DNA of 64,000 bases from Oscillospiraceae bacterium (GTDB lineage: Bacteria > Bacillota > Clostridia > Oscillospirales > Ruminococcaceae): assembly GCA_036645935.1 (NCBI GenBank), contig JAVXNE010000001.1, positions 384,660 through 448,659 of the forward strand. Direction: 5' to 3'. The position numbers and the translations under genes are program-made. Positions 33,756-43,849 of this stretch are shown here, one piece after another. The notes below the pieces were generated by a model, which saw nothing but the letters and a program-made list of their open reading frames with translations, was not told where the DNA came from and did not search any database. Every line of letters starts with the position of its first letter. The first letter of the stretch is position 1.

Positions 33756-33832
33756 TGGTGCGCCAGAAGGGACTCGAACCCCCGACCTACTGGTTCGTAG
33801 CCAGTCACTCTATCCAGCTGAGCTACTGGCGC
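33756..33832 (-). tRNA. tRNA-Arg (anticodon ACG) with an encoded CCA end
   Basis: Minus-strand sequence GCGCCAGTAGCTCAGCTGGATAGAGTGACTGGCTACGAACCAGTAGGTCGGGGGTTCGAGTCCCTTCTGGCGCACCA folds as a cloverleaf with a 7-bp acceptor stem, GGTTCGAGTCC T-arm and anticodon loop CTACGAA. Confidence 0.85.
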
Positions 33833-34022: not shown

Positions 34023-34733
34023 ATGCTGGGCACAATCGTTAATACAGCCGCTGTGGTCGTGGGGGCGGGCATTGGCCTTCTTGTAAAAAAGGGGATAAGC
34101 CGCGAGCTGTCTGATACCTGTATGCGCGTTATGGGGCTCGCAACCTCACTAATAGGTCTCACCAATCTGCTCCCGCTCATGCTGACGTCGGACGGGAGCG
34201 GAAAACTCGTGGCGGGCGGCGGGCTTTTACTGCTTGTCAGTCTCGTCGTCGGGACGACTGTCGGAGAGCTTCTCCGACTTGAAACCTGGGTCGAACGACT
34301 GAGTTTGTTCGCCGAACGCAGATTTAAACTTGATGGGTTCTCAAAGGGATTTGTGACCGCATCTCTGCTGTATTGTGTCGGCGCGATGGCTATAATCGGC
34401 TCTTTCAACGATGGGCTTTACGGCAACCACAGCATACTGTTTGTGAAAAGTGTGATGGATGCGATAAGCGGCTTTTTTCTCGCATCAACACTCGGGGTCG
34501 GCGTGTTGTTTGCAGCGCTGCCCGTGCTGCTCTATCAGGGGGCACTCACACTGGGAGCGGGGTTGATCGCGCCGCTGCTCTCTCAATCGGCAATGGACGA
34601 CATGTGCATGGCTGGCTTCGCGCTAATCATCGTTATCGGTCTCAACATGATGGGCATTACAAAATTCAAAACAACCAACATGCTGCCCTCGATGCTTGTG
34701 ATTTTGCTCGTTCGGCTCATTCCGTGGTTTTAG
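34023..34733 (+). CDS. DUF554-family integral membrane protein (YqgA-like)
   Basis: MLGTIVNTAAVVVGAGIGLL N-terminus characteristic of DUF554; polytopic; AGGAGG SD upstream. Confidence 0.7.
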   Translation: MLGTIVNTAAVVVGAGIGLLVKKGISRELSDTCMRVMGLATSLIGLTNLLPLMLTSDGSGKLVAGGGLLLLVSLVVGTTVGELLRLETWVERLSLFAERRFKLDGFSKGFVTASLLYCVGAMAIIGSFNDGLYGNHSILFVKSVMDAISGFFLASTLGVGVLFAALPVLLYQGALTLGAGLIAPLLSQSAMDDMCMAGFALIIVIGLNMMGITKFKTTNMLPSMLVILLVRLIPWF

Positions 34734-34745
34734 GAGATTCTGCCG

Positions 34746-35551
34746 TGAAAAATAATTTGCGTGCGTGTTACACCCCGACACGCTTCGCGTGTCTCGACGC
34801 ATTTTGGCTCAAGCTGATTGCGGTCATCGCCATGCTGTGCGATCATCTCGGTTATACCGGGCTTGCGAGCGGTGACTGGCTGCGGTTATTCGGTCGTATT
34901 GCCCTTCCTATCTACGCATTTTTACTCGTCGAAGGCTTTTTTAACACACACAATGTATCGCGCTACGCGCTGCGGCTCGCTCTATTTGCGCTGATATCTG
35001 AACTGCCATTCGACTTGATGGCGAGCTCAGGCTCGTCGCTTTTCTGTTGGGACGCGCAAAACGTGTTTTTCACGCTTCTGCTCGGTCTGCTCACGATAGC
35101 TGCACTGGATTATGTGAAGCGCACGTTCTATGATTCTCGACTTGACGCGGACATAAAATCACGCGTGCTGGGCGGTGCTTACGGACTGCTTCTTGCCATC
35201 GCTGCCGTCATTGCAGCCTGCGCACTTGCAACTGTTCTCTACACCGACTATTCATATTACGGAGTGCTGCTGATAGTCAGCTTCTACCTGCTGCGCGGCC
35301 ATCTCCTCCTCATTGCAGCGGCACAGCTTGTGATTTTCTTTCTGCTTATGCCTCACTACACCGTGAGTCTCACCCTTTTCAGCACTACGATGACTGTCGG
35401 GTTCTACGGTTTCGCCGTGTTCTCAATGATTCCGCTCGCCCTCTACAACGGAAAACGAGGGTTGCGCAATCCCGCTCTGCAATACGCATTTTATGCGTTT
35501 TATCCGCTGCATCTGCTCGTTCTCGGGATTATTGTGCGCGCCGTACGCTAA
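34746..35551 (+). CDS. TraX-family membrane protein (GTG start)
   Basis: FWLKLIAVIAMLCDHLGY is the TraX-family signature. An AGGAG SD lies 8 nt before the GTG at 34746. The track ORF at 34373 begins inside the upstream gene. Confidence 0.65.
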
Positions 35552-37335: not shown

Positions 37336-38577
37336 ATGGCATATAGCGAGCTGATTAAAAATTTTGACGGCATTCGGGACTATATGCATGAATTCTATGT
37401 GTACGGTTTCAAAAACCGTGAGGAGTTCACAAAGAAGAGCGCCCGCTCTTATGACGACGAACGGCGTCGCATCGAAAGCTGGCTGGGCGATTATATGTGC
37501 TTCCGCCAGACCGCTGATGGCAAAAATGTCTTTCTATCCATCGACAGCCGAATTTCTCACCATAACCCACTCTACAAGGCATGGAAAGCGAAAAGCTTTA
37601 CCGACGGAGACATCACCCTACATTTTCTGATTTTCGATATTTTGTGTAATTCTGATACCGCACTACAGCTAAACAAAATCACGGACGAGATTGACCGGCG
37701 GCTTCTGTGCTTTGACGATCCGAAAACCTTTGATTCCTCCACTGTTCGTAAAAAGCTAAAGGAATACGTAGAGCAGGGGCTTATCTGTATGGAGAGATCC
37801 GGAAAGACGGTAGTGTACCACCGGGCGGAAATGACTAATCCGGACTGCAAAGATGCGCTGGACTTCTTTTCCGAGATCGCACCCTGCGGGGTAATTGGCT
37901 CTTTTTTGCTCGATAAAATCGATACACCTGGGGAGCACTTTGCGTTCAAGCATCACTATATCACCGGGGCGCTGGACAGTGAAATTCAATGCGCATTGTT
38001 TAAGGCAATGCATGGCAAGCAATTTGTTCAAACAGAAACCGTAAACGGACGCAAGAAACTCACCGATGCGCAGAAGATTGTTCCTTTACGCATTTTTATC
38101 AGTGTGCAGAATGGCCGCCAGTACTTGATGGCCTATGTACCCGGTAACAGACGGTTCAGTTCCATCCGGCTTGACAACATTCTGTCGGTTTTTGCGGCGG
38201 AAACTTGCGAAAACTATGATGAATATCGGCAGAAACTTGACCAAATTCAAAAGCATATTTGGGGCGTCAGCACTGAAGGCGGATCTGAGCGTCTGGAGCA
38301 TGTGGAGTTTACTGTGCGGTACCGTGACGGTGAAGAGCATATTCACCGCCGACTTGAACGGGAAAAACGCTGCGGGCAGGTTGAACGAGTTGACAATCAC
38401 ACCGACCGGTTTTTCGCCGACGTCTATGACACAGGCGAGTTGGTGCCGTGGATTCGCACCTTTATCTGCCGAATTGTCAGCATTCATTTTTCAAATCAAG
38501 AGCTGGAAGCACAGTTCAAAAATGATATTGATAAAATGTATCGCCTGTACGGACTGAGCAAAGGCGATGAAACATGA
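37336..38577 (+). CDS. WYL-domain protein with a C-terminal WCX-like extension (PafBC/BrxR-like putative ligand-sensing regulator)
   Basis: Probable wHTH segment (LKEYVEQGLICMERSGKTVVYH); WYL core YLMAYVPGNRRFSSIRLDNI; C-terminal LVPWIRTFICRIVSIH resembling WCX; 413 aa; ATGA overlap with the next gene. Confidence 0.55.
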   Translation: MAYSELIKNFDGIRDYMHEFYVYGFKNREEFTKKSARSYDDERRRIESWLGDYMCFRQTADGKNVFLSIDSRISHHNPLYKAWKAKSFTDGDITLHFLIFDILCNSDTALQLNKITDEIDRRLLCFDDPKTFDSSTVRKKLKEYVEQGLICMERSGKTVVYHRAEMTNPDCKDALDFFSEIAPCGVIGSFLLDKIDTPGEHFAFKHHYITGALDSEIQCALFKAMHGKQFVQTETVNGRKKLTDAQKIVPLRIFISVQNGRQYLMAYVPGNRRFSSIRLDNILSVFAAETCENYDEYRQKLDQIQKHIWGVSTEGGSERLEHVEFTVRYRDGEEHIHRRLEREKRCGQVERVDNHTDRFFADVYDTGELVPWIRTFICRIVSIHFSNQELEAQFKNDIDKMYRLYGLSKGDET

Positions 38578-39485
38578 TTTTCAGCGAGCTTTACAGCGCC
38601 TACTACAACACCGTTGCGGCGATTTTACAGCAAGCGACCCGGCAGCCGGTTACCAAGGAACATCTCCGAACAATTATCGAGAATCGTGCATTTTCGGAAA
38701 GCATTTTATCAATCGATCCTTCGCTCACGAGCGGAAGATGGCAACTGCTGTGGTCGGATGGGACAACACCTCTCAAGTGTCCGCCAACCATGCCGCTTAC
38801 TATTCTGCAAAAGCGCTGGTTAAAAGCGATTTCCCTTGATCCGCGCATTCGACTGTTTGATTTTGATGATTCAAGCCTTGAAGATGTGTCCCCACTGTTC
38901 ACGCCGGACGATATTTATATCTTCGACCGATATACTGACGGAGACCCCTATGAGGATGCAGTATACATACAATACTTCCGTCTGATTTTAGATGCAATCA
39001 AAAACCGCTGTCCCTTGAGCATTGATGTGAAAAATCGTCGGGAGATCCGCACACATCTGACCGTGATGCCGGAATATTTGGAATATTCCGAAAAGGATGA
39101 CAAGTTCCGGCTGGTTACCTCCGGATGTCGGTACGGAAAGGTCGTCAATCTTGGGCGAATCCTATCCTGCAAACCGTTTCAGGGAGATTATTATGGATAT
39201 TTCAAAAAAACCGTCCCCGCAAATAAATTCGTTGTGATCGAGCTGTACGACGCGCGCAACGCGCTGGAACGAGTGCTGCTTCACTTTGCCCACTTCAAAA
39301 AAGAGGCACAGCGGTTGGATGAAAATCACTACCGTATCACGATTAAGTATCAGCAGGACGATGAGACGGAGTTGGTGATCCGGGTCCTTTCCTTTGGCCC
39401 GTTCATCAGGGTGACTGAGCCGGAAAGCTTTGTGGAACTGATCACAAAGCGGCTGGAAATGCAAAAAAGCTGTGAGCTCATTTGA
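38574..39485 (+). CDS. Second WYL/WCX-domain protein (partner of the preceding gene, PafC-like)
   Basis: WYL-like FRLVTSGCRYGKVVNLGRILSC and WCX-like LVIRVLSFGPFIRVTEPESF; 303 aa. Confidence 0.5.
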   Translation: MIFSELYSAYYNTVAAILQQATRQPVTKEHLRTIIENRAFSESILSIDPSLTSGRWQLLWSDGTTPLKCPPTMPLTILQKRWLKAISLDPRIRLFDFDDSSLEDVSPLFTPDDIYIFDRYTDGDPYEDAVYIQYFRLILDAIKNRCPLSIDVKNRREIRTHLTVMPEYLEYSEKDDKFRLVTSGCRYGKVVNLGRILSCKPFQGDYYGYFKKTVPANKFVVIELYDARNALERVLLHFAHFKKEAQRLDENHYRITIKYQQDDETELVIRVLSFGPFIRVTEPESFVELITKRLEMQKSCELI

Positions 39486-39501
39486 GTTCGCAGCTTTTTT
39501 T
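39464..39501 (+). terminator. Rho-independent terminator after the WYL gene pair
   Basis: aaaaaagctg ... cagctttttt stem flanking the stop codon, followed by a T7 run. Confidence 0.5.
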
Positions 39502-39600
39502 CCGTGATAATAGAGGATGAGTTTCGTATTCTATGCTTGCAAGCTGACCTATGCGGGTGTTTGCATCTTCCTTCACCGCGGTGCACAAGGAGCTTCCAAC

Positions 39601-39745
39601 GTGTATGCCGGTTATGCTTTGCACATGGCAATCGCGAAAGCGACGGGGTTCAAATCCCTCTTATCGCAGGTTCGAATCCTGCCTTACATCACGTAATGAT
39701 GTATGCCGGTGGTTTGGCAGCCGCCAAAAGCGACACAAAAAGCAC
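39601..39745 (+). ncRNA. tRNA-like element: two tandem T-arm-like motifs (GGGGTTCAAATCCC and GCAGGTTCGAATCCTGC) flanked by a direct repeat (tgtatgccggt ... aaagcgac). Candidate tRNA-mimic or Y-RNA-like ncRNA, or a tRNA-gene remnant.
   Basis: The GGTTCGAATCC T-loop consensus appears twice in plus sense within a 480-bp ORF-free leader between the WYL terminator and the SPFH-rtcB operon. No full cloverleaf could be folded by eye. Confidence 0.3.
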
Positions 39746-39986
39746 CTTCGGGTACTGATGAAAACCGCATTCGTTATCCGGCAAAGAATGCCCAGGGCAT
39801 AATAACTCGGATGCCAAAAGTATTCCGAGCAATGCATATCCGGCTTTGTCTTGAATCGGATACCGTGCACGGGACCAAAAGACCGTGAAGCCATTCTCCG
39901 TCGATTGGATCCCTGCGCTTAAGATTTCAGCCGCCGAATAGGCATGGATGACGAATCACAACTTTTAACCTGAGGAGGTTTACCAT

Positions 39987-41093
39987 ATGAAAAAGGTTAT
40001 TATCAATGAGAACCAGAAGGGATTTCTGTTCCGGAACGGTCAACTCGTCAAGCTTCTGAATGCAGGAAAATACCATGTGTTTGGGGACAGCGAAATTGAG
40101 CTTGTCTCTCTAAAAGAGCCCTTATCCTCCACAAAATGCGAGCTGGAGACCCTGCTCGCCAACAATGAAATCGCAAAGCACACCTTGGTCTGCGACGTTG
40201 AAGATCAGCAGCTGGCGCTCCATATCGTAAACGGCAATTTTGAAGGAGTGCTGCGCCGTGGCAAATATGCTTTCTGGTCCGTCACTGACCACCACGAATA
40301 TCATCCGGTGGATATTTCAACGCCCGAAGTCGCCCCAGATGTTCCTCTGTACATATTTGCAAAACTGCCCGCCACGCTTTATACGAAGATAGAAGTGGCG
40401 CAGTATCAGAAGGCGCGGCTGTACTTTGATCAGAAGCTTGTTTGCATTCTGGATGCCGGTGTGTATTACTTCTGGAAAAATAATATCCGGATCGATGTCG
40501 GGCTTGTGGATACGAGGCTTACTCAGATGGAGATCACCGGGCAGGAGATCATGACTCAAGACAAGGTCAGCCTTCGCATCAATTTTGTGTGCAATTATCG
40601 CATAACGGATTATGTGAAGATCCTTACCGAGATCGACGACTATTCCGCGCAGATGCACGTTGCAGCACAGCTCGCCCTGCGAGACTTTGTGGGAAAGCAA
40701 AAGCTGGACGACATTCTTGCAAATAAGGATGAGATGTCAAGGTATGTCTTTGACCGGCTCAAAGCAAGAGAAAGTGAGTTCTTTGTGGAAATCACCGACG
40801 CGGGCGTGAAAGATATCATACTGCCCGGTGAGATTCGCGACATCATGAACACAGTGCTGGTGGCAGAAAAGCGCGCACAGGCCAATGTTATTACCCGCCG
40901 AGAGGAGGTCGCTTCCACCCGCTCTTTGCTTAATACCGCCAAGCTGATGGAGGAGAACCAAACTCTTTACAAGCTCAAGGAACTCGAGCATATCGAACAC
41001 ATCTGCGAGAATGTGGGAAACATAAACCTGAACGGAAACGGAGATGTTCTGTCCCAGCTCATGAGCCTGATACATGCGGGTTCACCCTTCTGA
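39987..41093 (+). CDS. SPFH/Band-7 (stomatin/flotillin-like) domain protein with an N-terminal domain of about 180 aa of unknown function
   Basis: SPFH core (QEIMTQDKVSLRINFVCNYRITD ... PGEIRDIMNTVLVAEKRAQANVITRREEVASTRSL); strong GAGGAGG SD. Confidence 0.75.
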   Translation: MKKVIINENQKGFLFRNGQLVKLLNAGKYHVFGDSEIELVSLKEPLSSTKCELETLLANNEIAKHTLVCDVEDQQLALHIVNGNFEGVLRRGKYAFWSVTDHHEYHPVDISTPEVAPDVPLYIFAKLPATLYTKIEVAQYQKARLYFDQKLVCILDAGVYYFWKNNIRIDVGLVDTRLTQMEITGQEIMTQDKVSLRINFVCNYRITDYVKILTEIDDYSAQMHVAAQLALRDFVGKQKLDDILANKDEMSRYVFDRLKARESEFFVEITDAGVKDIILPGEIRDIMNTVLVAEKRAQANVITRREEVASTRSLLNTAKLMEENQTLYKLKELEHIEHICENVGNINLNGNGDVLSQLMSLIHAGSPF

Positions 41094-41154: not shown

Positions 41155-42357
41155 ATGATCGAAATAAAAGGGAATTTTAACACTGCGCTATGCTATACAC
41201 CGGAGTTGGAAGAAAAAGCGGCGGAACAGATTCGTACTGTCTGCGATGAGAAAGCCTTCCATGACTGCAAAATCCGCATCATGCCGGACGTTCACGCCGG
41301 CAAAGGCTGCACAATCGGAACGACCATGACTATCACGGATAAGATCGTTCCCGGTATGGTGGGTGTGGACATCGGATGCGGCATGGAAACAGTGAAGATT
41401 GAGCAGTGTGATATTGACTTTGAAAAGCTGGATGAACTGATTCACAAAAGCATCCCCTGCGGTCGTGAGGTGCGGAATGTGCCCCACGAATACAACGCGC
41501 AAATTGACCTGACAGAGCTTCGCTGCGCCCCCTATGTCAGCCTTGAGCGAGCGACAAAAAGCATTGGCACACTGGGCGGAGGCAATCATTTTATCGAGGC
41601 AGATTGCTCCGACGCCGGAGACATTTATATGGTAGTCCATTCCGGCAGCCGTCATTTAGGGATTGAGGTAGCCGATTACTATCAGAAACAGGGACGGCAG
41701 GCTATGTGGGGTGGCGCGCGCTATCAAATTGAGCAGCTTATTGAATCGCTCAAGGCAGAGGGGCGATTCCAAGATATACAACCGGCGGTGACTGCACTCA
41801 AAAATGAGCACAAAATCGATATACCGGGCAATCTGACCTATGTGGAAGGCAAACTGTTCGACGATTATATCCATGATATGCGTATTGTGCAGCGCTTCGC
41901 CATCCTGAACCGCAAGGCGATGATGGATGTTATCCTTTCTGATATGGGATTCACAAAAACAGACGAATTCACGACCATTCACAACTATATCGATACCGAT
42001 GCGATGATCCTCCGCAAAGGCTCAGTTTCTGCAAATAAGGGTGAAACTCTGCTGATTCCAATCAACATGCGTGATGGCAGTCTTATCTGCGTGGGCAGGG
42101 GAAACCCGGAATGGAACTATTCCGCGCCCCACGGCGCAGGGCGGCTCATGAGCCGTAAAGCGGCGTTTTCGTCATTATCCATGGAACAGTACCGGGAAGA
42201 GATGAAAGGCGTTTACTCCACCTGCGTCATGCCGGATACGCTGGATGAATCCCCCATGGCCTATAAGAGCATAGAGGAAATTATCCAGCAGATCGAACCC
42301 ACTGCACAAATTATAGAGCGCATCAAGCCTATTTATAACTTTAAGGCGGCAGAATAA
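41155..42357 (+). CDS. rtcB: RNA 3'-phosphate/2',3'-cyclic-phosphate ligase RtcB
   Basis: Metal-site motifs MPDVHAGKGCTIG, GGGNHFIE, HNYID, PINMRDG and SAPHGAGR (the nucleophilic His lies in SAPHGAGR); 400 aa. Confidence 0.85.
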   Translation: MIEIKGNFNTALCYTPELEEKAAEQIRTVCDEKAFHDCKIRIMPDVHAGKGCTIGTTMTITDKIVPGMVGVDIGCGMETVKIEQCDIDFEKLDELIHKSIPCGREVRNVPHEYNAQIDLTELRCAPYVSLERATKSIGTLGGGNHFIEADCSDAGDIYMVVHSGSRHLGIEVADYYQKQGRQAMWGGARYQIEQLIESLKAEGRFQDIQPAVTALKNEHKIDIPGNLTYVEGKLFDDYIHDMRIVQRFAILNRKAMMDVILSDMGFTKTDEFTTIHNYIDTDAMILRKGSVSANKGETLLIPINMRDGSLICVGRGNPEWNYSAPHGAGRLMSRKAAFSSLSMEQYREEMKGVYSTCVMPDTLDESPMAYKSIEEIIQQIEPTAQIIERIKPIYNFKAAE

Positions 42358-43231: not shown

Positions 43232-43807
43232 TTAATAGTATCGCAAACATCCCACAACACGGCCGAGCACCTGAACGTCATCCGCAATTATAGGTTCAAA
43301 ACTGGGATTCTCCGCATGAAGCTCAACGCGTCCGTTTTTTCGGTAAAGACGCTTCACCGTAGCCTCGTCTCCAATGAGCGCAACGGCAATCTCACCGTCC
43401 TCAACGGTCGGTGTCTGCTTTGCGACTATAATATCTCCGTCTAGGATTCCCGCGTTTATCATACTCTCGCCGCGAACGTGCAACGCAAAGAGATCGCTGT
43501 TGTCCCTGCGGGGACTGTCGAACATTATGTAATCCTCGATATACTGCTGTGCGAGAATGGGCACGCCGGCAGCAACGGTTCCGAGTAAAGGAACAGAAAC
43601 CGCAGACCCGCTCTTGGTGAGCGATATGTTGCGACGTTTGCCCGACGCTATTGAAATCCGTCCCTCATCCTCCAGCTCGTGCAAAAGTTTGTGAACCTGC
43701 GATGTCGATTTAATCGCAAGGGCATCGCACAGCTCTCGCACCGACGGTGGAGATTCAAAGCTGTTCTCGACAAGATAGCGAAAGAGCTTTTCCTTCTTAC
43801 CGCTCAT
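43232..43807 (-). CDS. lexA: LexA repressor (S24 peptidase, SOS regulator)
   Basis: N-terminal LexA DNA-binding domain (PPSVRELCDALAIKSTSQVHKLLHELEDEGRI); S24 Ser-Lys dyad (GESMINAGI ... TVKRL). The ATG at 43807 follows a GGAGGAT SD; the track start at 43843 is an extension. Confidence 0.85.
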   Translation of the reverse strand: MSGKKEKLFRYLVENSFESPPSVRELCDALAIKSTSQVHKLLHELEDEGRISIASGKRRNISLTKSGSAVSVPLLGTVAAGVPILAQQYIEDYIMFDSPRRDNSDLFALHVRGESMINAGILDGDIIVAKQTPTVEDGEIAVALIGDEATVKRLYRKNGRVELHAENPSFEPIIADDVQVLGRVVGCLRYY

Positions 43808-43837
43808 ATAATATCCTCCGCCCTTAGCGTTGGGTTT

Positions 43838-43849
43838 GAACATTTGTTT
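43838..43849. promoter_or_regulatory. Putative LexA (Cheo-type) box GAACATTTGTTT in the lexA promoter
   Basis: GAAC-N4-GTTT, as for clostridial and Bacillus LexA operators. It lies about 30 bp upstream of the lexA start and downstream of a TGgTATTAT extended -10 on the minus strand. Confidence 0.45.

Follow-up and report, generated by a model that had tools for sequence, protein, structure and literature searches.

Two T-loop motifs flagged earlier upstream of an SPFH-rtcB gene pair are shown here, by comparison of homologous loci, to belong to a predicted tRNA-like module of a conserved structured RNA of ~420 nt, encoded on the sense strand between a pair of WYL-domain genes and the SPFH gene. 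Throughout, "the window" denotes the whole 64-kb stretch of DNA that was analyzed; coordinates are those of the window and features lie on the + strand unless otherwise indicated. The RNA was matched over its full length by an nhmmer profile and extends from approximately 39538 to 39955, with both ends placed from the sequence; it is assigned to the + strand because G-U pairs fix its orientation. The sequence-only reading had described a stand-alone tRNA-like element of 145 nt, which proved instead to be one module of this much longer RNA, the others being a 5' domain and a 3' rod. The RNA is absent from Rfam 15 and is a candidate new family. By analogy with Ro60-Y RNA complexes, we propose with moderate confidence that it may act as the RNA subunit or cofactor of an SPFH (or SPFH-RtcB) particle, with a tRNA elbow as the interaction surface.

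Distribution and gene context of the RNA

A search with the SPFH protein yielded 80 loci from species-representative genomes; in 74 of the 80, an nhmmer profile built by iteration on the gap preceding the SPFH gene matched the leader from end to end, immediately ahead of SPFH. RNA-bearing loci were found in MAGs annotated as Oscillospiraceae, Lachnospiraceae, Ruminococcus, Acutalibacteraceae and Christensenellaceae, as well as in Robinsoniella peoriensis and Oscillibacter valericigenes. The isolates that carry the locus are O. valericigenes Sjm18-20, for which the genome is complete (AP012044.1, locus at ~469.6-478.7 kb), and R. peoriensis CCUG 48729, and the locus is common in genomes of uncultured gut and rumen Clostridia. 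The window itself comes from an Oscillospiraceae MAG.

To remove the ascertainment bias inherent in an SPFH query, metagenome contigs were scanned RNA-first, using as signature a near-invariant loop motif, GGAUACCG, taken from the 3' domain only. Fifty-eight of the 81 hits were confirmed as the full RNA, essentially all with a same-strand SPFH gene downstream, and approximately nine more were divergent RNAs that retained the T-arm and lay beside SPFH proteins of ~50% identity. A scan of viral contigs with a 5'-domain signature gave zero matches.

The conserved cassette has the order WYL-WYL-RNA-SPFH(-RtcB). Within the window, the putative regulator pair consists of a WYL-domain protein of 413 aa (37336-38577; PADLOC WYL, E 5.9e-9, residues 221-401), for which a Pfam search returned no match, and a WYL/WCX-domain protein of 303 aa (38574-39485; PADLOC WYL, E 2.2e-7; Pfam WCX at 18 bits, under the cut-off). 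The first of these genes was present upstream of the RNA in 56/80 loci and the second in 61/80. Downstream lie the genes for an SPFH/stomatin-like (slipin) protein extended N-terminally by 150 aa (39987-41093; Pfam Band_7, 1.3e-25; PDB stomatin 3bk6, E 5.9e-17) and for an RtcB RNA ligase (41155-42357; Pfam RtcB, 1.5e-59). An rtcB gene follows SPFH in about three quarters of the loci and is missing downstream in ~13, one of which has an RlaP nucleotidyltransferase gene and another a release-factor gene. Given that RtcB is absent from these ~13 loci, and that the locus L098 has the RNA and SPFH without RtcB, SPFH is a tighter partner of the RNA than RtcB. In ~10 loci an unannotated ORF of ~210 aa separates the RNA from SPFH.

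The flagged motifs and the direct repeat

Both T-loop motifs were found where the sequence-only reading had placed them. GGGGTTCAAATCCC was read from the window sequence at 39645-39658, and GCAGGTTCGAATCCTGC, a perfect T-arm, at 39666-39682, with CTTACAT directly 3' of it (39683-39689). The two hairpins are separated by 7 nt and the two 11-mer T-loop cores by 11 nt; it is the latter gap that corresponds to the spacing of 11 nt given previously. The 64-kb window contains three copies of the consensus GGTTCRANTCC, whereas 0.31 would be expected, and at least three copies arose in 0/100 shuffles, i.e., the motifs are present above chance. The third copy belongs to a genuine tRNA-Arg gene (33756-33832, - strand) located 6 kb from the element.

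The direct repeats reported to flank the T-arm were likewise borne out. TGTATGCCGGT is an exact repeat of 11 nt (39602-39612 and 39700-39710), and AAAGCGAC also occurs twice (39637-39644 and 39727-39734). When one bulge was allowed, at least 8 of the 11 positions of the former were common to both segments in 26 of 43 distinct homologous leaders, and the repeat is thus recognizable there. Its first copy, with the conserved sequence GYGUAUGCCRG (39601-39612), supplies the 3' strand of helix P3 and the following junction (GUAUGCCRG), and its second copy (39700-39710) supplies the 3' strand of the acceptor hairpin and the first bases of the D-stem. Since 39683-89 is complementary to each of the two, a canonical acceptor stem (39601-07/39683-89) competes with the closed hairpin. 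This alternative stem forms 6/7 pairs in the window. About half of the distinct sequences likewise allow at least 6/7, but many lineages allow just 1-4 of the 7 pairs and so cannot form it.

The repeats look like two copies of the 5' part of a tRNA, comprising the acceptor 5' strand and the start of the D-stem, on either side of the T-arm. From this arrangement we infer that the module probably derives from a tRNA together with the 5' third of another. Such an origin would account for the direct repeat, and it would run contrary to an att duplication, in which the tRNA 3' end is what gets copied.

The region had also been described as free of protein-coding frames. Mechanical ORFs do overlap it (e.g., 39504-39758), but the variable insert of 20-119 nt and the pervasive compensatory changes in stems speak against coding.

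A circularly permuted tRNA-like core

Comparison of orthologous loci, the check that the sequence-only reading had proposed, revealed compensatory changes throughout the 5' domain, the tRNA-like module and the 3' rod. For the module, the alignments show the arrangement of a predicted circularly permuted tRNA mimic, in which a helix or anticodon-like hairpin is followed by a variable loop, a T-arm, a closed acceptor hairpin and a D-arm. The order T-arm, closed acceptor hairpin, D-arm was parsed in 55/67 leaders, and a covariance model of the core (R1) found one copy per leader in ~65 loci, the copy in the window lying at 39659-39719 with a score of 52.3 bits.

The T-arm, GCAGG-UUCGAAU-CCUGC (39666-39682), was 100% paired in 66 distinct sequences; its stem contained 0 broken pairs despite exchanges of CG for UA (50/16) and of GC for AU (44/22), its loop, of the UUCRANY type, was nearly invariant, and the arm is conserved in ~65 related loci. 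Abutting the T-stem is a loop-closed acceptor-like hairpin (39683-39705, with its loop near 39692-39697) in which 7/7 pairs were compensatory. It is followed by a D-arm-like hairpin, CCG-GUGGUU-UGG (39706-39717), with an invariant GG in its loop and a covarying third stem pair (AU 41, GC 6, GU 5, UA 2, CG 1). The T-arm is preceded by a variable-loop-like linker, CUUAUC (39660-39665), the last nucleotide of which, C39665, would be the Levitt-type partner of G39709. These two positions (columns 7/100) covary, with CG in 46 sequences and UA in 5, though they are unpaired in the model, and the predicted contact is of the R15:Y48 type, i.e., that of the tRNA Levitt pair. The T-loop would contact the GG of the D-loop and so form a tRNA elbow.

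Across the module 92.5% of cells were paired, a value that, like our other percent-paired figures, is biased upward by the fitting of the pair-count alignments to their own models; this bias is mitigated by slid controls (31-49% here), by shuffles (152 compensatory cells in the module vs 41.6 in shuffles) and by the unmodelled Levitt pair. Thirteen of the 15 pairs in the module were compensatory. The conserved T-arm, the GG of the D-loop and the covarying Levitt-type pair uphold the earlier suggestion that an RtcB locus is here associated with a mimic of tRNA.

The 5' domain and the 3' rod

The 5' end of the RNA (39538-39544) provides the 5' strand of helix P1, which pairs in a second covariance model (R2) with GCUUUGCA at 39616-39623; 6/6 of its pairs were compensatory. 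Enclosed by P1 are the P2 hairpin (39553-39579, pairing 39553-59/39574-79), with 5/5 compensatory pairs and 95.5% pairing, and P3 (39582-39605, pairing 39582-86/39601-05), which was 99.7% paired and in which one pair was AU in 35 sequences and GC in 35. Nested in P3 is P3a (39589-91/39595-97), one pair of which was AU in 38 sequences and CG in 20. For the 5' domain as a whole, 94.1% of cells were paired and 16/19 pairs were compensatory, as compared with 23-53% pairing in slid controls (model R2, 73 sequences). A further helix crossing P1, D1 (UGCC 39606-09/GGCA 39627-30), is possible in the sub-family of the window; its UGCC strand is invariant and thus gives no covariation signal.

Beyond the tRNA-like module, a linker (39722-39756) contains two small hairpins (39722-32 and 39741-56) assigned from sequence and fold, and homologues have equivalent capped hairpins. 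The 3' domain (39785-39955) is predicted, from averaged pair probabilities, to form a long rod of six helices, and 28 of the 31 predicted pairs were compensatory. Its outer helices are 39785-94/39946-55, 39832-44/39933-45 and 39848-57/39923-31, and its inner helices are 39865-74/39910-18, 39877-83/39900-07 and 39886-89/39894-97. The rod carries the near-invariant loops GCYUUGYC, GGAUACCG, CUNAA and GCCGC, of which GGAUACCG is an internal-loop motif (39858-39865) conserved across the leaders. A pseudoknot between the GGAUACCG loop and an ACGGU in the linker, possible in two homologous leaders (L007 and L013), was dropped as ACGGU is absent from the window.

RNAalifold applied to the MAFFT alignment of full leaders was disturbed by the variable insert and returned a poor consensus; it was replaced by averaged pair probabilities, block alignments and the two covariance models. 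A naive scan for stacked pairs was swamped by conserved columns and was left out of the results.

The variable region and the first hairpin

Between the 5' domain and the T-arm lies the hypervariable part of the RNA, which measures 20-119 nt and contains 0-4 hairpins among homologues. In the window it includes a small hairpin, CGCGAAAGCG (CGCG-AA-AGCG, 39633-39642), which belongs to the optional module, which the Rfam tRNA model aligned to the D-arm and whose stem length varies in homologues. It is followed by GGGG-UUCAAAU-CCCU (39645-39659), which had been read as the first of two T-arms and which the Rfam tRNA model aligned as an anticodon arm. The two motifs are therefore not the equivalent, tandem T-arms that they had been taken for: by its placement, the first appears to be a hairpin at the anticodon position, or the class II variable-arm position, of a tRNA, and a second T-loop motif is present in only 19/67 leaders.

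Other leaders have at this position a 5-bp stem and a 7-nt loop with U at position 2. A hairpin just before the variable loop was detected in 44 leaders; its loop measured 7 nt in 22 of them, and U occupied position 2 in 22/22. At least 12 of the loops read CUGUNAA and two (in L054 and L059) read CUUUUAA; we take the former to resemble the anticodon loops of tRNA-Tyr, tRNA-Asn and tRNA-Asp, and the latter presumably resembles that of tRNA-Lys. Four minimal variants (L078, L079, L014 and L035) are without such a hairpin. At the other extreme, L098 has in the same place two tandem tRNA-Asn(GUU)-like genes called by ARAGORN, followed by the 3' rod and then by SPFH.

Predicted promoter, operator and translation signals

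An inverted repeat of two arms with 89% complementarity (39463-39500; arms 39463-80/39483-500), to which no strand applies, forms a terminator-like hairpin of the WYL gene and is a likely operator. Its 3' arm is invariant in sequence even at loci without upstream WYL genes. This arm is part of a near-invariant element, AGTTCGCAGCTTTTTTTCCGTGA (39485-39507), that combines an operator half-site, a T-tract and the -35 region; AGTTCGCAGCTTTTTTTCCGTGA occurs once in the window and is near-identical in ~60 loci; the palindrome to which it contributes the 3' arm also serves the WYL gene as its terminator hairpin. Alignment of upstream regions placed a -10 box, TATTCT, at 39527-39532, where most homologues have an extended -10 (TGnTAAAAT), and transcription would thus start at ~39538-39540. 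A second copy of the promoter motif in L054 (5137-5210) directly drives another gene without a leader RNA, which indicates that the promoter/operator module is a DNA-level element.

No terminator was found on the + strand in the 487-nt gap ahead of the SPFH gene, and thus none between the RNA and the SPFH ORF. The Shine-Dalgarno sequence of SPFH, GAGGAGG (39972-39978), lies outside the conserved structure and is not sequestered.

Possible roles of the RNA

We consider that the RNA may be a partner of the SPFH protein. The WYL pair would control the promoter and respond to nucleic-acid damage, and the RNA would be co-transcribed with SPFH(-RtcB) in the way that yrlA and yrlB are within rsr-yrlBA-rtcBA. 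It could then be the RNA component of a particle built on SPFH, its 5' and 3' domains binding the SPFH oligomer and its tRNA-shaped elbow acting as the working end, which might recruit RtcB or another tRNA-recognizing factor, or might occupy tRNA-directed nucleases. On this proposal the SPFH-RNA pair would be the SPFH counterpart of Ro60-Y RNA. In its favor are the presence of the leader in 74/80 SPFH loci and the fact that the RNA-first scan led again to SPFH, together with the covarying, tRNA-like structure, the closer linkage of the RNA to SPFH than to RtcB, the lack of any expression platform (no terminator, free Shine-Dalgarno sequence) and the separation of the RNA from SPFH in ~10 loci. 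There is also a precedent in the Band-7-associated tRNA-like cofactor of Burroughs and Aravind, as it is described by Wang et al. (2018). Against it, the constant position of the RNA as a sense-strand 5' leader suits a role in cis equally well, the RNA scores below the Rfam thresholds for both tRNA and YrlA, and neither a Ro60 gene in the cassette nor a Ro-binding motif was identified.

A role solely in cis on the SPFH-rtcB mRNA, which we regard as rather unlikely, would agree with the RNA always being first in the operon, in sense orientation, and with the lack of a terminator ahead of the first ORF. The leader might be an element for processing or stability, cut at the tRNA-like module by RNase P or another tRNA-processing enzyme, and published work in which Mycobacterium smegmatis YrlA with a 7-bp acceptor stem became an RNase P substrate is consistent with this. 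Alternatively, it might be a sensor that switches between the closed acceptor hairpin and the canonical acceptor stem in response to tRNA-binding factors or damage; the direct repeat does provide 39683-89 with two competing partners, both in the window and in about half of the distinct sequences. However, the alternative pairing cannot form in many lineages, whereas the closed hairpin is universal, and there is neither a conserved terminator/antiterminator nor a helix that sequesters the Shine-Dalgarno sequence. A leader of 420 nt with more than 12 covarying helices goes far beyond usual expression platforms. Moreover, the promoter in L054 drives a gene that has no such leader, and in ~10 loci the RNA and SPFH are not immediate neighbors.

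A different kind of function, as a bait or decoy for toxins that cut tRNAs, is compatible with the SPFH particle but seems improbable to us. Here anticodon nucleases would recognize the tRNA-shaped module and its hairpins resembling anticodon loops, and the module would either protect tRNAs competitively or be cleaved itself, leaving 2',3'-cyclic phosphate and 5'-OH ends, with re-ligation by RtcB reporting the damage, e.g., to the WYL regulators. This would fit the 7-nt loops in 22 of 44 detectable hairpins, all with U at position 2, the recurrence of CUGUNAA (at least 12 loops) and CUUUUAA, the two tRNA-Asn(GUU)-like genes at the same place in L098, and the location of the hairpins in the hypervariable stretch of 20-119 nt; Hughes et al. 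likewise suggested that YrlA may inhibit an anticodon nuclease. On the other hand, the minimal variants lack any such hairpin, the loop in the window is itself T-loop-like (UUCAAAU) and not a recognizable target, and YrlA was not cleaved by the Salmonella nuclease (Hughes et al.). The segment might instead be a degenerate tRNA gene or att scar, i.e., a functionless tRNA 3' end duplicated upon integration of a mobile element; the sequence-only reading had offered an att-site remnant as its alternative. In favor of this are the perfect T-arm followed by a 7-nt acceptor-like strand, the flanking direct repeats and the real tRNA-Arg gene 6 kb away. We reject it as having next to no chance of being correct: the element sits at the same place ahead of SPFH, and points the same way, in 74 of the 80 species-level loci, which come from several families of Clostridia, its helices are maintained by compensatory changes, its repeats correspond to the 5' part of a tRNA and not to the 3' end expected of att sites, and its sequence differs from that of the neighboring tRNA-Arg. 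The zero matches to the 5'-domain signature in viral contigs also speak against it, and against a phage origin.

Returning to the SPFH-RNA particle, a more elaborate version can be imagined, although we think it unlikely in its entirety. An ornate 420-nt RNA would sit on a soluble stomatin-like cage reminiscent of vault or Ro particles and would present a permuted tRNA with lineage-specific, anticodon-like baits for toxins; cleavage of the bait and re-sealing by RtcB, or titration of the toxin, would sense damage for feedback through the WYL proteins. The module would in this version have arisen at the junction of a tandem tRNA pair, which would explain why there is a direct repeat and why two acceptor pairings compete.

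Bacterial RtcB systems respond to damaged tRNAs, and the present locus would be a second, Ro-independent example of a tRNA-like RNA associated with them. It is distinctive in the far greater size and good definition of its RNA, in having SPFH as a fixed partner, and in having a WYL pair with a recognizable operator as the type of regulator. It thereby gives a handle on tRNA mimicry in RNA repair, on SPFH proteins as possible RNA-binding scaffolds and on sensing by WYL domains.

Comparison with known RNAs

The likeness to canonical tRNA comprises the perfect T-arm, the linker of variable-loop length, the hairpin aligned as an anticodon arm (4-bp stem, 7-nt loop, U33), the GG of the D-loop, the R15:Y48 covariation and, in about half of the lineages, a possible 7-bp upstream acceptor pairing. 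In contrast to tRNA, the SPFH-linked RNA has no free acceptor ends or CCA, and its arms are permuted, the covarying D-arm being 3' of the T-arm. ARAGORN called no tRNA in the region and made odd calls, with differing anticodons, in 4/60 homologous leaders. The Rfam tRNA model (RF00005) scored 16.8 bits against a threshold of 29 and aligned over model positions 10-63 only, and the YrlA model (RF02553) gave no match in the window at E values up to 10. At gathering thresholds, no Rfam 15 family matched the region, and none matched the 5' or 3' domain; permissive Rfam scans returned sub-threshold T-arm-type matches to tRNA, tmRNA, mascRNA and YrlA, and chance matches to microRNAs. The covariance-model search put forward by the sequence-only reading thus returned none of the expected families, yet the structure is strongly conserved all the same, which makes the lack of a hit too narrow a test for dismissing the element.

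In size and architecture, i.e., several hundred nucleotides with many covarying helices and invariant internal loops, the RNA presumably resembles ROOL, GOLLD, OLE and raiA, a likeness of class only. The same applies to what we take to be their narrow range, here Clostridia, and to their having no assigned biochemical function. The SPFH-linked RNA differs from them in its fixed protein-gene partner and its embedded tRNA mimic. Our literature search returned no large RNA described at RtcB, SPFH or WYL loci, and no description of the 5' and 3' domains.

YrlA, whose gene lies within the rsr-yrlBA-rtcBA operon of Salmonella (Hughes et al.), has been described as a permuted tRNA mimic (Chen et al., 2014, PMC4201824; Wang et al., 2018, bioRxiv 10.1101/312249). 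The analogy with Y RNAs drawn by the sequence-only reading is apt, in that our RNA shares with YrlA the succession of variable stem-loop or variable loop, T-arm, loop-closed acceptor and D-arm, as well as the invariant T-loop, the GG of the D-loop and the covarying Levitt-type pair. One homologue (L007) aligned to the Rfam YrlA model with T-arm, acceptor hairpin and D-arm in register, but scored 14.1 bits where the gathering score is 69. Both RNAs are encoded within an RtcB RNA-repair operon, with probable co-transcription in our case, and both are modular, consisting of a tRNA-like module and a separate, presumably protein-binding, module. They differ in that the "anticodon" stem is formed by the 5' and 3' flanks in YrlA, where the SPFH-linked RNA has a local hairpin or P1, and in size, the latter having roughly four times the length of YrlA and including a 5' domain and a 3' rod of 170 nt. 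SPFH is the protein that partners the RNA; no Ro60/TROVE (rsr) gene was found within the cassette of WYL, WYL, RNA, SPFH and RtcB, and it has no Ro-binding helix, the Ro-binding motif GNCGAAN0-1G being absent from the window and scattered at no fixed position in 15/67 leaders. As neither a Ro60 gene nor a Ro-binding motif was identified, the analogy rests solely on topology and operon context.

The closest precedent is the band-7-associated tRNA, or b7a-tRNA, which, according to Wang et al. (2018), was predicted beside Band-7 and RtcB genes and proposed to be an RNA-repair cofactor (Burroughs and Aravind, 2016, NAR 44:8525), a prediction stated never to have been validated experimentally (Wang et al., 2018, bioRxiv 10.1101/312249). 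As so described, it is, like our RNA, a tRNA-like non-coding RNA adjoining a Band-7/SPFH gene and RtcB. It is said to resemble an authentic tRNA strongly, whereas neither ARAGORN nor the Rfam tRNA model calls the element in the window, whose acceptor is closed; L098, where ARAGORN calls two tRNA-Asn genes ahead of the 3' rod and SPFH, fits the citing description better. That description mentions no 5' or 3' domains, promoter/operator or WYL pair. Insofar as b7a-tRNA is known from it, the two are very probably the same phenomenon. The RNA reported here would thus fall into the class of YrlA and b7a-tRNA, to which the present analysis adds a large conserved RNA, its structure, its promoter and operator, and its SPFH-centered linkage.

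tRNA-like features of the RNA in homologous loci

Among the homologous leaders, the RNA varies most in the hairpin region just 5' of the variable loop. In loci such as L013, L015, L027 and L054 (handles for homologous loci, with coordinates local to each), this hairpin carries a 7-nt loop of sequence CUGUCAA, CUGUAAA, CUGUUAA or CUUUUAA; such loops resemble those found in the anticodon arms of tRNA-Asp, Tyr, Asn and Lys. At L098 (1105-1250 and 1394-1494), a GC-rich metagenome contig, two tandem tRNA-Asn(GUU) genes called by ARAGORN lie directly 5' of a 3'-rod-like element that includes GGATACCG and of an SPFH gene, with no RtcB in the vicinity. This arrangement may represent the tRNA-like module in an ancestral or "authentic tRNA" state. 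The window contains a genuine tRNA-Arg(ACG) (33756-33832, minus strand) adjoining a TraX-family gene (34373-35551, plus strand), to neither of which the tRNA-like element is related.

Within the RNA, UGCC at 39606-39609 could pair with GGCA at 39627-39630 to give a D-stem-like helix around the 3' strand of P1; were this helix to form, it would create a pseudoknot with P1. The pairing is present only in the sub-family carrying the UGGCAAUC motif. The 3' rod contains the near-invariant unpaired motifs GGAUACCG, CUNAA and GCCGC (39858-39865 and 39918-39934), which are candidate protein-contact or tertiary-contact sites.

A conserved promoter/operator module

A conserved promoter/operator module (window 39463-39532) overlaps the stop codon and terminator hairpin of the WYL gene and consists of a palindrome, GCTGYGRACT...AGTTCGCAGC, followed by TTTTTTTCCGTGA and an extended -10 box. 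The module is likely to be a binding site of the WYL pair. In L054 (5137-5210) and L059, a second copy drives a gene that has no RNA leader and is located between SPFH and RtcB.

Genes neighboring SPFH and rtcB

In about ten loci, including L005, L022, L027, L037 (3366-4001), L063, L069, L070 and L072, a conserved ORF of ~210 aa sits between the RNA and SPFH. It has no Pfam match and displays the motifs YHCIFSRSxDGY...ISYWNE.YR...YRYKDY.GKKLY. Among the loci in which SPFH is not followed by RtcB, one has a gene for the RNA-repair-pathway nucleotidyltransferase RlaP and another a PCRF/RF-1 release-factor gene (L067 5123-5887; L064 5277-6494).

On the strand opposite to rtcB, some 900 bp past the end of that gene, the window encodes a LexA-type repressor with Peptidase_S24 and LexA DNA-binding domains (43232-43843, minus strand). 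The Salmonella rtc operon is induced via the SOS response, and the proximity of this repressor gene to rtcB may or may not be meaningful.
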